From an uncultured Candidatus Saccharibacteria bacterium (GTDB taxonomy: Bacteria; Patescibacteriota; Minisyncoccia; Phycocordibacterales; CAZVEC01): a stretch of DNA of 29,551 nucleotides. The stretch lies in the NCBI GenBank assembly GCA_964626035.1, contig CAZVEC010000001.1, positions 1 to 29,551 on the forward strand, in the 5' to 3' direction. The translations under genes were made by a program, and so were the position numbers. Position 1 is the stretch's first letter. The number at the start of each line of letters is the position of its first letter. A model generated the notes under the pieces. The model saw only the letters and a program-made list of their open reading frames with translations, was not told the DNA's origin and searched no databases. Of this stretch, positions 2,965-19,131 are shown piece after piece.

Positions 2965-3513
2965 TCACTCTTCTTGATGAAAATTTTCGCGGTAGTTTTG
3001 AACCGCTTTATCAATTACTTTTTTAGATGTGCCTTTCTTGAATTCAAGATAGGTACCTTTTATTACTGGGACCATAATCATCTCTGACACATCAGGCGGG
3101 TTAGAAATAAAATCAGCTTTATAATTAAGTTCTTTCTTTTTTTTAACAGAATTGTTTTCTTTAGCCCTTTTTTTTAACCTCTCCTTCGCAATTTTTTTCA
3201 CTCTCTTTTTAATATCATTATTGTCCTTGGCTAATTTTAGGCCATATTCTTTCACTGTTTTCCTAGCTACAGTTTTCTTTAATCTAGTTGCTTTTACAGC
3301 ATGAAGTTCCGTCAATCTTTGTTCAGGAAAAATATTGTTTTTTCTGAAATAATCCAGTTCCTGCTTAATTATCTGATTTATTAAAAACGTTGCGCTAAAA
3401 ATACTTATATCGTATTCTTCTTTTCCCGCTAGGCTTCTAAGAACTTCCTTGTTGAGCTCTTTAAGCTCTTTCCTCCTTTTGGCAGTAAAATCCTTTTCTT
3501 CTGGCGTGTTCAT
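2965..3513 (-). CDS. Lys-rich hypothetical protein
   Basis: Long ORF. ATG at 3513 (MNTPEEK) preferred; the ORF track starts at 3537. No family recognised. Confidence 0.6.
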   Translation of the reverse strand: MNTPEEKDFTAKRRKELKELNKEVLRSLAGKEEYDISIFSATFLINQIIKQELDYFRKNNIFPEQRLTELHAVKATRLKKTVARKTVKEYGLKLAKDNNDIKKRVKKIAKERLKKRAKENNSVKKKKELNYKADFISNPPDVSEMIMVPVIKGTYLEFKKGTSKKVIDKAVQNYRENFHQEE

Positions 3514-3609
3514 AATTATTAAGTTTTTTAAATCCATAGCAAGAATAACCCAAATTACCCATTCCTGTCAATTTTTTGTTTTTTGTATTTTTTCGTGTAT
3601 AATTCGCCC

Positions 3610-4242
3610 ATGCATTTAAGCGCGGAAAAATTTGAAATAGTACCCAATGAACCGCCGGTGGTATCACTTCGGCGCGAGCTTTTAGACACCGTTAAAAATG
3701 TCGAAGAGATAGACAAGGAAAGGGAGATAGTGGCTAACCTTGCGGAAAAAAATAAAACAATACAGCTTGACGCGGCTTTTGTAAGAGAGAAAGATAGGAA
3801 GTCAGGCGACCCTACTAATCCAAATAGCCCTTTTGCTAATTTCATCCGCATGCGTGCCGCGGAATTTCTTGATCTTCCAGATGAAGATGCGTTCAAGTTT
3901 TATTCGGCCGCTTCGGCTTCTCAAAATAAGACCGTTTTGGAGAGGGATTATAAGATTGATGCTTTTTTCGAGCTTGAGAGGGAAGAGGGTAATATTATCG
4001 TTCCGATTAATTTGACCATTCGGCCTGAGGAGAATTCAAATGCACTAGTCTATGTGCTCTCGAAAGATTTTCCTATACACGGGAGATTTTCAAAAGGCGG
4101 GAAGGGAGAATTTGCGGGATTGTCAGAGGGTGAAGAAATACTATTTAATAAATCTGTCGCTGAATTGGGAAAAAAAATAGCTGGCCGTTTTAAGCACTTA
4201 ATTGAGATAGAAAAACAATCTGCCGTTAATGAAACAGATTAG
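3610..4242 (+). CDS. Hypothetical protein, probably leaderless
   Basis: TATAAT at 3598..3603 lies 6 nt before ATG 3610, favouring this start over 3583. Confidence 0.7.
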   Translation: MHLSAEKFEIVPNEPPVVSLRRELLDTVKNVEEIDKEREIVANLAEKNKTIQLDAAFVREKDRKSGDPTNPNSPFANFIRMRAAEFLDLPDEDAFKFYSAASASQNKTVLERDYKIDAFFELEREEGNIIVPINLTIRPEENSNALVYVLSKDFPIHGRFSKGGKGEFAGLSEGEEILFNKSVAELGKKIAGRFKHLIEIEKQSAVNETD

Positions 4243-4315
4243 TTAAACTGTCAATATTGAAGAAGTGTAAAAACTTTGGTATAAAACAATTGAATGCACA
4301 CTAAAACTTGAAAAT

Positions 4316-4714
4316 ATGTACAAGCTTGTTTTCAGAGAGAAAAGAATTCTGCCGGACTTTCTGTGGCTTATGATGAAAGAAAAGTTTATTAAAAATCCGA
4401 TTGTAGCCGAGATCAGAAATGAGGGCGAAGCTCCTATAAGGAAAAGAGACGAGAATGGAAAATTGATCAAATGCGTTACATCAGCGTGCTGTTGCACATG
4501 CGGAGGCGGAATATGGATGCTCACTATGCCCGAAGCTGCGAGATACGCTTTGATTGGACAATTTGAAATGCCTAAAAAAATGACTCTTTTTTCTCACCGA
4601 ATTTATGCTAATTTCTGTGATAATTGTCAAAAGCCAGGTCTTGTTCCAAAGGCGGAAATCGTGCCTTATCTTGAATATGAAGATATGACATTCCCCGAAA
4701 AATTACATTCTTAG
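4316..4714 (+). CDS. Cys-rich hypothetical protein with a probable zinc ribbon
   Basis: CVTSACCCTCGG ... FCDNCQKP gives two CxxC knuckles. Confidence 0.65.
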   Translation: MYKLVFREKRILPDFLWLMMKEKFIKNPIVAEIRNEGEAPIRKRDENGKLIKCVTSACCCTCGGGIWMLTMPEAARYALIGQFEMPKKMTLFSHRIYANFCDNCQKPGLVPKAEIVPYLEYEDMTFPEKLHS

Positions 4715-4737
4715 GAACTGGATTTATGTAAAAAATT

Positions 4738-4764
4738 AAAACATCGCGAAATCGCGGTGTTTTT
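4738..4764 (+). terminator. Intrinsic terminator
   Basis: AAAACATCGCGA-AA-TCGCGGTGTTTTT after the 4714 stop. Confidence 0.65.
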
Positions 4765-4801
4765 GTTTTTTAGGTTTTTTCGTGTATAATAGTCAAACAA
4801 A

Positions 4802-6721
4802 ATGCCTATAAATTTTCAAAAAAATCAAAATGAAAATAGGGGGTCAAAAAAGACGTCCAAAAAAGATGGTCCGAAGTTTTCTAATTTGATGATGACGGGA
4901 CTTCTTATTTTAATGCTTATCACCGCGCTTTACTCGGTGATTTCTTCGCCTGACAAGAAAGTGGAGGAGATTTCTATTTCCGATCTGGCCAAGAAGGTGG
5001 AAAATGCCGAAGTTAAGAATATTGAAGTGGCTGGCGAAAAGCTTAACATAGAGCTTAATGATGGCACTTTAAATCGGGCCAAAAAGGAAACAGAATCATC
5101 GTTGTCTGAAACTTTAAATAATTACGGAGTGACGGCGGAAAAATTAGCCGGTGTCCGTATTATAGTCAAAAATGAAAGTGGACTTGGTTTTTGGCTTTTA
5201 AATATTTTGCCGTTTTTGGTGCCTATTCTTTTTATTTTTATTTTCTTTTGGTTTATTTCGCGCCAGGTCAAAGGCGCCGGCATGCAGGCTTTTTCCTTCG
5301 GCCAGTCCAAAGCGCGCATCACTGATCCGAACGACAAAAATAATAAAGTTACTTTCAAAGACGTGGCCGGCTGCAAGGAGGCCAAAGAAGAATTAAAAGA
5401 GATTGTTGATTTCCTTAAAAGTCCGAAAAAATTCTTGGATATCGGCGCGAGGATTCCAAAGGGCGTGATTTTAATGGGAGCTCCGGGTACGGGAAAAACT
5501 CTGCTTGCTAGAGCTGTCGCTGGCGAGGCTAGCGTTCCATTCTTTCATCTTTCCGGTTCGGAATTTGTGGAGATGTTTGTGGGCGTGGGAGCTTCTCGCG
5601 TACGCGATCTTTTTAAAATGGCCAAGAAAGCGGCTCCGGCTATTATCTTTGTCGATGAACTTGATGCGATCGGGAGGACCCGCGGGGGAGGATTCGGCGG
5701 AGGTAATGATGAGCGTGAGCAGACCTTAAATCAAATCCTAGTGGAAATGGACGGCTTTGAGCCTACTGATAAAGTAATAGTCATGGCGGCCACAAACAGG
5801 CCTGACGTTTTGGATCCGGCACTTGTCCGTCCGGGACGTTTTGACCGAAAAGTGATTCTTGATCTGCCTGACCGATCTGATCGCGAAGAGATTTTGAAAA
5901 TTCACGCGGTTAAAAAACCTCTTGCTGAAGACATTAATTTGAAGTTGATTGCGGAGCGAACTCCGGGATTTTCCGGCGCTGATTTGTATTCTCTGATGAA
6001 CGAAGGCGCGATCTTGGCTGCGAGGGAGAATCGCAAGCAAGTTTTTCAATTCGACCTCATCCGTGCGATTGAAAAGGTGATGCTGGGGCCCGAGCGCAAG
6101 AGCCATCTGCTTTCCAAAAAAGAAAAAGAAATTACCGCCTATCATGAAGCGGGGCATGCTCTTGTGGCGTCTGTGCTTCCGTATGCCGATCCGGTGCATA
6201 AAGTTTCCATTGTGGCCCGCGGGCGCGCCGGGGGATACACTTTAAAGCTTCCACTTGAAGATAGAAAGCTGCAGTCCAAGAAAGAATTCATAGACGATAT
6301 CGCGATGTCTTTGGGCGGTTATGTTGCCGAAAAAATGATTTTTGGAGACATTACGACCGGTCCATCGAGCGACTTGCAAGTGGCCACAAATTTAGCGCGA
6401 GCCATGGTCACCCGTTGGGGGATGTCGGATGTTATCGGCCCTGTTGCTCTAGGTGGAGAAGGCGGAAGGCCTTTGTGGGGCGAGGCTCCGGAAAAAGAAT
6501 ATTCTGAAGAAATATCAGCCAAAGTAGATTCTGAAATTTCTAAGATAATAAACAATGGCATAAAAACTGCGGAAAAAGTTTTGGCTGATCATAAAAAAGC
6601 ACTAGATGCAATTGCGAGCAAGCTTATTGAAGTTGAAACTCTTGAACAAGAAGAATACGAAAAGGTAATAATCGCTCACGGAATAATGCCAAAGACTAAA
6701 GCAGATGAGTCTGTTGGTTAG
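4802..6721 (+). CDS. ftsH: ATP-dependent zinc metalloprotease FtsH
   Basis: Two TM segments, Walker A GAPGTGKT, Walker B IIFVDELD, second region of homology [20 protein letters not shown], and HEAGH zinc motif. Confidence 0.99.
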
Positions 6722-17710: not shown

Positions 17711-17801
17711 TGGCGGAGGGGGTGGGATTTGAACCCACAGGCGGCTTTTAAGACCGCCACGGATTAGCAATCCGTTCGTTTAACCATTCACGCACCCCTC
17801 C
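17711..17801 (-). tRNA. tRNA-Ser, anticodon GCU; CCA encoded
   Basis: GGAGGGG/CCCCTCC acceptor, ACGGA-TT GCT AA-TCCGT anticodon arm, long variable arm, GTGGG-TTCAAAT-CCCAC T-arm, G73-CCA. Confidence 0.95.
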
Positions 17802-17820: not shown

Positions 17821-18831
17821 CTAAATTTTATATCTTTTCAAATGCTTATTGTTATGTGTACCTACAATCCGCATATATTTTTTAACATCCTGAATTCTAT
17901 CTAACCGGACGTCGAATACGGTTGTGAATCGAGGGTGAAGTCCAATATTTTTTAATATCGTATAAACTGATTTAAGCAACGGTTTCGATTTATTTGTGAA
18001 TGCTATTTTTTTGTACTTATATATCTTACCTCTGACTATATATCGATGAGTAAAAACGCAGCCATCTGTATCTATGAGACCTCGTACGCAGGCTATTGAA
18101 TATTTATTATTATCAAGAATCCATCTAGGAATATCAACTTGGTGATGCACTTTATTTCCGGCCATCAGTCCAAGTGAAGACATATAATCTATAAGCCCCT
18201 TTCGTGAGATAGTGACATCTCTTATCATCAGCTTTCTTTTGTTCCTATATTGATATATTGCAGGAGTAACTTTGAAGAGACGGTTAAGTAAATTTTTCAC
18301 ATACAAAATATATTCGGCATCCGTTACTCGATTTAGAGTAATTCTAATTTGGTTTTTTGTTATACTGCCGTCTCCAAGTAAAATTCCGCATATCTCAGCA
18401 AGTTCTGTCGACTTTTCTGGATAGTAAACGTATTTTTCTTTTCCGAATAAAGTATTAAGTCCAAGGTGTCCTTCCTTGACCCACCACTTGCTCCATTGTT
18501 GTTTACGAAAGAGTTCATCGCCACAAACTTTTCCGTATTTTTTAAGCTTGCTTGTGCCTCCGATTTTACCTGCCTTACTTGTGTGCTCAGACCATACAAT
18601 TATTTTTCGCGGTGATGGCAAGGGTATTCTAGTTAGTTTTGATAATTGATCCCCTACGGTACATGTAATTCTAAATTTATTTCTTCGCCAGTCTCTAATT
18701 GTACGTTCTGATACTTTTAGTTTTTTTGCGATAATAGCAATAGTCCATCCTCTATATTTCAATATTTGCTCAATAAACTTTTTTTGCGCGCCACGAACAA
18801 ATTGATATCTAGATGTATATGATTCAGACAT
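17821..18831 (-). CDS. Free-standing two-motif LAGLIDADG (DOD-type) endonuclease-like protein with an N-terminal HTH
   Basis: HTH TIAIIAKKLKVSERTIRDWRR; motif 1 ELAEICGILLGDG; motif 2 CVRGLIDTDG; both acidic catalytic positions retained; no intein splicing residues evident. Confidence 0.9.
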   Translation of the reverse strand: MSESYTSRYQFVRGAQKKFIEQILKYRGWTIAIIAKKLKVSERTIRDWRRNKFRITCTVGDQLSKLTRIPLPSPRKIIVWSEHTSKAGKIGGTSKLKKYGKVCGDELFRKQQWSKWWVKEGHLGLNTLFGKEKYVYYPEKSTELAEICGILLGDGSITKNQIRITLNRVTDAEYILYVKNLLNRLFKVTPAIYQYRNKRKLMIRDVTISRKGLIDYMSSLGLMAGNKVHHQVDIPRWILDNNKYSIACVRGLIDTDGCVFTHRYIVRGKIYKYKKIAFTNKSKPLLKSVYTILKNIGLHPRFTTVFDVRLDRIQDVKKYMRIVGTHNNKHLKRYKI

Positions 18832-18867
18832 GTCTCCATAATATCAAAACATAGCATTAATTTAAAG

Positions 18868-18896
18868 TGGACAATCTTGTATAGAAAAGCTATAGT
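18868..18896 (+). promoter_or_regulatory. Sigma70 promoter of tRNA-Ser(ACU)
   Basis: TGGACA-17-TATAGT ending 14 nt before the tRNA. Confidence 0.6.
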
Positions 18897-18910
18897 TACG
18901 ATTAAATTTA

Positions 18911-18997
18911 GGAGGAATGGGTGAGTGGTTTAAACCAACGGTTTACTAAACCGTCGTCCTTTAATCGGGACCGTGAGTTCGAATCTCACTTCCTCCG
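18911..18997 (+). tRNA. tRNA-Ser, anticodon ACU; CCA not encoded
   Basis: GGAGGAA/TTCCTCC acceptor, GGT/ACC D-stem, ACGGT-TT ACT AA-ACCGT anticodon arm, long variable arm GTCC/GGAC, GTGAG-TTCGAAT-CTCAC T-arm, discriminator G73. Confidence 0.9.
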
Positions 18998-19131
18998 CAG
19001 TTTGAAACGCAGTGAAAACTGCGGAGGAAAGCAAGTTAATTACTTCACTTGCGAGTGAGATTCGAACGCTAGAGCATAAACAAGGAACGAAGTGATTATG
19101 TTTTGTCTCCACTACCTCGTGCTAGCACGAG
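18977..19131. repeat. Antisense mirror of the tRNA 3' end plus nested hairpins
   Basis: 18990..19003 pairs with 19016..19029 (14 bp); 18977..18990 pairs with 19054..19067 (14 bp); GCAAGT/ACTTGC hairpin between them; CTCGTGCTAGCACGAG palindrome near 19116..19131. Confidence 0.85.

Follow-up and report, generated by a model that had tools for sequence, protein, structure and literature searches.

The window, as we call the whole 29,551-nt stretch of DNA analysed here, contains three tRNA genes recognised by ARAGORN. One of these, at 18911-18997 on the plus strand (18911-18998 in the ARAGORN call, as tRNA-Ser(act)), encodes a class II tRNA-Ser with the anticodon ACU. The Rfam model RF00005 matched 18911-18997 over its full length with 57.8 bits (gathering score 29) and an E-value of 3.2e-10. 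Read directly from the sequence, the gene has a 7-bp acceptor stem (GGAGGAA/TTCCTCC), a 3-bp D stem, an anticodon stem ACGGT/ACCGT, a long variable arm with its own stem, and the T arm GTGAG-TTCGAAT-CTCAC. The 7-nt anticodon loop, TTACTAA, provides U33, A34 (position 18945), C35, U36 and A37, such that the anticodon ACT occupies 18945-18947 of the plus strand. The discriminator base, G73, is position 18997, and the gene does not encode CCA. Class II tRNAs for leucine and tyrosine carry A73, unlike the G73 of tRNA-Ser. The covariance-model cloverleaf, the long variable arm with a stem, G73 and the presence of SerRS in the genome together place the gene among class II tRNA-Ser; an earlier note on this DNA had given the same coordinates and the same cloverleaf with serine identity (G73, long variable arm), and these proved exact by ARAGORN, Rfam and sequence reading.

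A consensus scan revealed a candidate sigma-70-like promoter (TGGACA-17-TATAGT; 18868-18896, plus strand) that matches the consensus at 10 of 12 positions and ends 14 nt 5' of the gene. Upstream matches of at least 9 of 12 to this consensus were present at 35% of 43 ACU loci versus 11% of shuffles, an enrichment that renders the promoter suggested earlier for this gene plausible.

The identity of the critical base was examined in a second assembly. A 918-nt Logan contig from run X1 spans 18860-19060 with 0 differences at a depth of 5.2, and reproduces the A at 18945 and the whole ACT anticodon. X1 is a groundwater metagenome from 2014 that is probably the source sample, and therefore this contig represents a second assembly rather than an independent sample; nonetheless, the identical A indicates that A34 is not the slip of one assembler. 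That the A is an assembly or sequencing error within a GCU gene could be argued from the low coverage (depth about 5), but a different assembler returned an identical contig, the tRNA body shares just 71% identity with the true GCU gene, which lies 1.1 kb from it, and the ACT anticodon recurs in 85 of 401 genomes of the order. We consider the chance of such an error negligible. Among the RNA runs searched for the locus, none was shown to hold Ser(ACU), those listed sharing only about 2 of 16 sampled words with it, and SOLiD metatranscriptomes of the same study contained 0 sampled words of the locus. One wetland metatranscriptome contig overlaps a related tRNA with 6 differences, the anticodon not being visible in the contig, which therefore does not count as a sign of expression.

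The canonical tRNA-Ser(GCU) gene, with CCA encoded, is a divergent neighbour (17711-17801, minus strand; ARAGORN and Rfam). Between the two tRNA genes lies a free-standing HTH-LAGLIDADG homing endonuclease gene (17821-18831, minus strand), recognised by Pfam LAGLIDADG_3 (3.2e-13), HTH_23 and LAGLIDADG_2; in the related genome G040 only about 110 bp separate the two tRNA genes. Behind the Ser(ACU) gene, an inverted copy of the 3' 28 nt of the tRNA (the 3' strand of the acceptor stem, and the T stem and loop) is located at 19016-19067 (plus strand), split by a hairpin at 19031-19053, and the inverted repeat comprises two perfect 14-nt arms (18977-18990 with 19054-19067, and 18990-19003 with 19016-19029). 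A degenerate third copy of the tRNA 3' end is located at 19078-19095. The tRNA together with this trailer folds with -65 kcal/mol (z -5.6). Of 46 carrier loci, 9 share this layout; they belong to different families, the layout frequently follows a terminator-like hairpin, and it occurs only behind copies that lack an encoded CCA; the inverted copy co-varies with the acceptor and T-stem sequence of each genome's own tRNA. No other tRNA gene of the source genome (G000) had such an inverted copy among the roughly half that matched the strict T-loop motif of the scan. Elsewhere in this genome, on contig C26 (about 2968-4950), the spc ribosomal-protein operon is broken by a stretch of about 2.7 kb that separates the genes for L5 and S8 and contains a 420-aa frame and, on the opposite strand, a 205-aa frame.

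Distribution, covariation and relation to tRNA-Ser(GCU)

We searched genomes of the order with a strict pattern made up of the anticodon loop plus the single base on either side of it, then a gap and the T loop. This pattern was present in 85 of 401 sampled genomes and 54 of 223 genera, with 1 match for the reversed control; counts of this kind are minimum values, and relatives among the genomes are not independent observations. The tallies for ACU, GCU, MnmG and UAU include one unpublished genome, G249, on which no claim rests. All 30 ACU loci that were fetched were called Ser(act) by ARAGORN. Outside the order, 14 of 393 sampled genomes of the phylum (about 3.6%) carry Ser(ACU), and these copies have a different body type, again often beside GCU; the looser pattern used at this level is noisy (about 24 control matches), and therefore only copies confirmed by ARAGORN (13) were counted, plus one by sequence.

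In an alignment of 29 copies, 99.6% of stem cells were paired. Changes on both sides were present in 13 of 24 stem pairs and in all five helices, all 4 pairs of the variable-arm stem co-vary, and the discriminator G is invariant in the 29 sequences. Among 500 shuffles, none reached the observed covariation score or percentage paired and 2 reached the count of doubly changed pairs, and slid controls of the stem alignment scored far lower. Such compensation in every helix points to selection acting on the RNA fold. In this set the loop is invariant by design of the search pattern, and the pattern-independent evidence on the anticodon comes from copies found by BLAST: a whole-tRNA search of 40 relatives identified four orthologues, all with ACT (G026, G012 and G040 at 86-82% identity, and G030 at 76%), the remaining matches (at most 77% identity) being UGA, GCU or CGA tRNAs.

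Identity of the window's ACU tRNA to its counterparts is 0.8-0.9 in other families and 0.66-0.86 across classes, whereas ACU tRNAs share 0.57-0.76 with the serine isoacceptors of their own genomes. In G000, Ser(ACU) is 0.71 identical to the GCU tRNA, 0.75 to UGA and 0.60 to GGA, and its differences from GCU in the acceptor, anticodon and T stems are compensated. Because it is closer to foreign ACU tRNAs than to its own serine tRNAs, and because 71% identity with compensated stem differences separates it from GCU, Ser(ACU) is an old paralogue and not a recent G34A copy. The view that the gene is maintained rather than a recent mutant copy, put forward when the locus was first described, is thus borne out by the compensatory changes across families and the 0.8-0.9 identity to foreign ACU tRNAs.

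The GCU tRNA is retained alongside it. The corresponding GCU pattern was present in 341 of the 401 genomes and in 83 of the 85 ACU carriers, or 84 of 85 with G222, where the gene was recognised by ARAGORN, and in 17 of 32 loci of relatives the GCU gene lies within 1.5 kb of the ACU gene. Five same-genus non-carriers (G017, G212, G284, G033 and G150) have the GCU locus with GCU only. In a same-genus comparison with G001, synteny stops at the histidine kinase gene and neither serine tRNA is present there, so that this genome does not bear on loss of ACU alone. Ser(ACU) is a presence/absence polymorphism, an addition to the GCU tRNA rather than a substitute for it, and does not stand in for the GNN tRNA of its box. 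Given that 79% of the sampled genomes of the order, including relatives of the same genus, manage without Ser(ACU), any benefit that it confers should be small.

Codon usage and viral copies

For codon usage, we compared 103 genomes (50 carriers and 53 non-carriers), sampling about 20 kb of each, through 31 within-family contrasts, with p values uncorrected over 11 measures. Relative to non-carriers, carriers have lower GC3 (-0.035, p 0.04), more AGU (+1.95 per 1000 codons, p 0.02) and less AGC (-1.75 per 1000 codons, p 0.05). The excess of AGU over AGC, after subtraction of the U-over-C preference of five other two-codon boxes, came to +0.225 (p 0.11) and was above zero in 16 of 31 families, and neither the AGY share of serine codons nor the AGR share of arginine codons differed between carriers and non-carriers. 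In G000 itself, AGU makes up 55% of AGY versus 72-80% U in the other two-codon boxes, and the ribosomal-protein operon has the same AGU:AGC ratio (28:24), with no AGU preference. Ser(ACU) goes with AT-rich genomes in which AGU is frequent, with no special co-adaptation of AGY codons seen.

Copies of the tRNA are also present in viruses. The strict pattern matches at least 120 IMG/VR contigs, and among the matches listed 77 of 80 viral loci encode Ser(act), mostly inside tRNA arrays. Among these listed matches, one recurrent array comprises Lys(ttt), Glu(ttc), Ile(tat), Ser(act), Asn(gtt), Gln(ttg), Thr(tgt) and Arg(tct), Ser(gct) is usually absent from the arrays that have Ser(act), and the viral copies vary among themselves, none exceeding 78% identity to the tRNA of the window. 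In 47 viral contigs from the matches listed, GC3 is 0.30 and AGU is the commonest serine codon, at 18.1 per 1000. Several of the listed Ser(act) arrays also include Arg(acg), which suggests that the hosts of those arrays have TadA; if so, loss of TadA would not be a strict precondition for Ser(ACU). Some of the arrays include Gly(acc) alongside Ser(act), and others have odd calls with four-base anticodons (gaga, ttcg). Reviews count the Gly(acc) anticodon, too, among those missing universally. No isolated phage with Ser(ACU) was found, a blastn search with two viral arrays returning generic tRNA matches only. A tRNA-Ser of Pseudomonas phage ZC03, considered as a case from a cultured phage, was discarded on account of its UGA anticodon.

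Together, these observations raise the possibility that Ser(ACU) is a passenger of mobile DNA or a near-neutral duplicate, persisting through slow tRNA evolution or mobile or phage spread, with little or no role in decoding. Its patchy presence, within genera too, would be expected of such a gene, as would the adjoining LAGLIDADG homing endonuclease gene in the window, the inverted copy of the tRNA's own 3' end behind it, its abundance in phage tRNA arrays, and the lack of a visible AGY-specific shift in codon usage. However, compensatory changes affect five helices across families and classes, and the cloverleaf is intact in every copy examined. The CPR copies moreover form a body type of their own, with 84-89% mutual identity and at most 78% identity to the viral copies listed, and their place beside GCU is kept, which fits vertical descent with losses better than repeated import by phages. 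We therefore regard the passenger explanation as unlikely.

Modification enzymes and proposed decoding

To place the gene within the decoding apparatus of its genome, we examined the G000 assembly (925 kb in 111 contigs, 36.7% G+C, 91% completeness). Proteins related to one from the window carry the names Candidatus Paceibacteria, Paceibacterota or Nomurabacteria, which assigns the genome to the Parcubacteria branch of the CPR. Ser(act) is the sole A34 tRNA among the 36 tRNA genes of G000. Its arginine tRNAs are CCT, TCT (two copies), CCG and TCG, and neither GCG nor ACG was found. In several relatives within the order (L006, L009, L010, L020 and L022), Arg(GCG) is located near Ser(UGA), in place of Arg(ACG). 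This arrangement fits the reported lack of ACG and TadA in CPR bacteria; the absence of tRNA-Arg(ACG) from CPR genomes was described by Shulgina and Eddy (PMC8629427).

A search of G000 (91% complete) for TadA returned no PF14437 or PF00383 match and no gene of the deaminase fold. In four other carriers, the PF00383 proteins are ComEB/dCMP-deaminase-like (or dCTP deaminase), and the TadA model reached 17.7 bits against a cut-off of 150. The search for TilS in G000 returned GuaA as the only PP-loop match. Neither tadA nor tilS, both of which were to be catalogued according to the earlier note, was thus found in G000. SerRS is encoded by a 420-aa frame on contig C45 (PF02403, 83 bits), and TsaD, an MnmA-like protein and a protein of the CCA-adding-enzyme family are all encoded. 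MnmG (GidA, PF01134) was found in 0 of 401 genomes of the order at E <= 1e-30, whereas 9 bacterial control genomes matched. With no MnmG found in these genomes, U34 of the Arg(UCU), Lys, Glu, Gln and Leu(UAA) tRNAs probably goes without xm5U throughout the order. The uniform absence (0 of 401) leaves no contrast with which the presence of Ser(ACU) could be correlated.

The earlier note also proposed that Ser(ACU) and Ile(UAU) are parts of one decoding strategy, in which extra Watson-Crick tRNAs replace modification enzymes. The window does encode a tRNA-Ile(UAU) (C38; 6862-6935, minus strand; Ile(tat) by ARAGORN), and Ile(UAU) without TilS is a known way to read AUA without lysidine. Of 331 genomes of the order, at least 246 (at least 74%) had the UAU pattern, and lysidine-free decoding of AUA seems to be shared across the order, whereas the distribution of Ser(ACU) is patchy (85 of 401; 21%). 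UAU was present in 63 of 72 carriers (87.5%) versus 183 of 259 non-carriers (70.7%), but the excess is no larger than that of GCU (98% versus 82%) and thus looks like a bias of assembly or detectability. We therefore rejected a specific coupling between the two tRNAs. Nor does Ser(ACU) appear to replace a modification enzyme: with its G34, Ser(GCU) reads AGU as well as AGC without any modification, and the GCU tRNA is retained in nearly every carrier.

We propose instead that Ser(ACU) is a functional accessory serine isoacceptor whose unmodified A34 reads AGU by Watson-Crick pairing and supplements the GCU tRNA. We hold this to be the probable reading, given a folded and conserved gene that co-occurs with GCU in a genome with no TadA gene found and with SerRS, TsaD and a CCA-adding enzyme present. 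The gene's own promoter would drive its transcription, and 3' processing together with the addition of CCA would yield the mature tRNA. The anticodon is not an identity element for SerRS, and thus the enzyme should charge the tRNA with serine, through the long variable arm and G73. In a lineage without TadA, A34 should remain plain adenosine, and t6A37 would adjoin U36. Ser(ACU) would then pair with AGU by full Watson-Crick geometry, leaving AGC to Ser(GCU), which could still wobble onto AGU. The gene would be a dispensable old paralogue that is kept mainly in AT-rich genomes where AGU is frequent, and phage arrays would use the same solution.

Two sets of experiments in E. coli bear on this proposal. 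An orthogonal tRNA(ACU) read AGU at 9.4% and AGG at 0.36%, did not read AGC or AGA above the detection limit, and escaped deamination at A34 (PMC11066159). Overexpressed Ser-tRNA(ACU) was among the few split-box ANN tRNAs that improved E. coli growth, with low predicted mistranslation (bioRxiv 10.64898/2026.05.15.725136). Misincorporation of serine at the arginine codons AGA and AGG, which the earlier note raised as a risk in this box, is probably a small one, judging from the values for AGA and AGG in the first of these studies.

An alternative is that A34 reads beyond AGU, either through an A:C pair with AGC or after a modification other than that by TadA, so that the tRNA would serve as a second general AGY reader. 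Unmodified A34 in four-codon boxes does read C and G as well, as in Mycoplasma Thr(AGU) and in orthogonal ANN tRNAs (PMC11066159), and AGC, at 9.2 per 1000 codons in G000, is not rare. We nonetheless think this improbable, with the ACU anticodon below detection on AGC in E. coli (PMC11066159) and GCU retained in 84 of 85 carriers, as would be expected if ACU cannot serve AGC.

Still less credible is that an unrecognised deaminase converts A34 to inosine, in which case AGU, AGC and AGA would be read and AGA would become ambiguous between serine and arginine. Bacterial A34 is almost always I34 (PMC8007984), and the four carriers examined do have proteins of the cytidine/dCMP-deaminase fold with N-terminal extensions. 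These proteins, however, score as ComEB/dCMP or dCTP deaminases rather than TadA, and G000 at 91% completeness has no match of that fold at all. Inosine would also be costly, since AGA is the commonest arginine codon in G000 (14.4 per 1000), where two Arg(UCU) genes and one Arg(CCU) gene are present. Furthermore, E. coli TadA leaves the ACU anticodon unmodified (PMC11066159), the loop with U36 is not the UACG that TadA accepts, and GCU, although retained, would be redundant.

Returning to a working tRNA with unmodified A34, its selective value might lie in shielding AGU from misreading by Arg(UCU). The xm5U34 modification normally keeps U34 tRNAs off pyrimidine-ending codons. As no MnmG was found and Arg(UCU) is probably without xm5U, this tRNA could misread AGU, which would be the most exposed codon given that GCU reads it only via a G:U wobble; a Watson-Crick competitor would then lower arginine-for-serine errors. 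This protective role, which we put forward as a speculation that is rather unlikely to be correct, would explain the occurrence of Ser(ACU) in phages with AT-rich genes.

Comparison with known systems

Why anticodons starting with A are almost never used unmodified is an open question of the genetic code. A 2021 review lists A34 as universally missing in the Ser-Arg box (PMC8007984). A 2026 preprint covering 4,047 bacteria reports split-box ANN tRNAs as only sporadic in GtRNAdb, describes their near-universal absence as a paradox, and does not mention CPR (10.64898/2026.05.15.725136). Our search of the literature on anticodons in CPR bacteria or Patescibacteria returned no description of Ser(ACU), a serine isoacceptor whose anticodon had been regarded as unused. 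A supposedly forbidden tRNA is here a conserved gene of ultra-small bacteria in which TadA was not found, and is common in arrays of uncultivated phages. This offers a natural system in which to ask whether a plain A34 works in a split box, what it reads and at what cost, and illustrates for annotators that ANN tRNA calls in CPR genomes and phages are not to be dismissed as errors.

The nearest natural counterpart is tRNA-Thr(AGU) of Mycoplasma capricolum. Both are natural bacterial tRNAs with an A34, which in M. capricolum is unmodified and used in translation (PMC11066159) and which in the window would be so by our reading. Thr(AGU) serves a four-codon box, where misreading is harmless, and is the NNY reader of that box, whereas Ser(ACU) shares a split box with arginine and has a G34 tRNA alongside (84 of 85 carriers). 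The combination of an encoded A34 with no gene for an A34 deaminase, which characterises natural decoders with unmodified A34, is also that of G000. The same anticodon and codon box have been engineered in E. coli, both with the M. jannaschii tRNA(ACU) (PMC11066159) and with Ser-tRNA(ACU), obtained by converting the wobble base to A (bioRxiv 10.64898/2026.05.15.725136). Those are laboratory constructs that read AGU almost exclusively and are not deaminated by TadA, in a host with TadA and MnmEG; the gene in the window is natural, with no TadA found (in G000 and four carriers) and no MnmG (in 401 genomes).

The tRNA-Arg(ACG) that is modified by TadA likewise has a gene-encoded A34 and shares U33-A34-C35 with Ser(ACU). 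Unlike Arg(ACG), Ser(ACU) has U36 rather than G, I34 would be harmful in its box, and no TadA gene was found; in relatives, Arg(GCG), Arg(UCG) and Arg(CCG) take the place of ACG. The Ile(UAU) of bacteria lacking TilS, of the Mycoplasma mobile type, resembles Ser(ACU) in being an extra Watson-Crick reader of an A/U-ending codon. Ile(UAU) adjoins Ser(act) in many phage arrays among the matches listed, and both fit AT-rich codon use, but Ile(UAU) replaces the lysidine pathway and is order-wide, whereas Ser(ACU) replaces nothing and is patchy. Accessory tRNA sets of phages have the choice of anticodon in common with the tRNA of the window, which, unlike the copies in phage arrays, has the neighbours of a bacterial chromosome (two-component, GNAT and VanW genes) and lies beside GCU. 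Finally, bacterial tRNA-Ser(GCU), of the E. coli serV type, belongs to the same class II, with a long variable arm and G73, and serves the same codon box. The ACU and GCU tRNAs have in common G1-C72/G2-C71/A3-U70 and the loop U32 U33 N34 C35 U36 A37 A38, and differ in that GCU, with G34, reads AGU and AGC, whereas ACU has A34 and a conserved body of its own.
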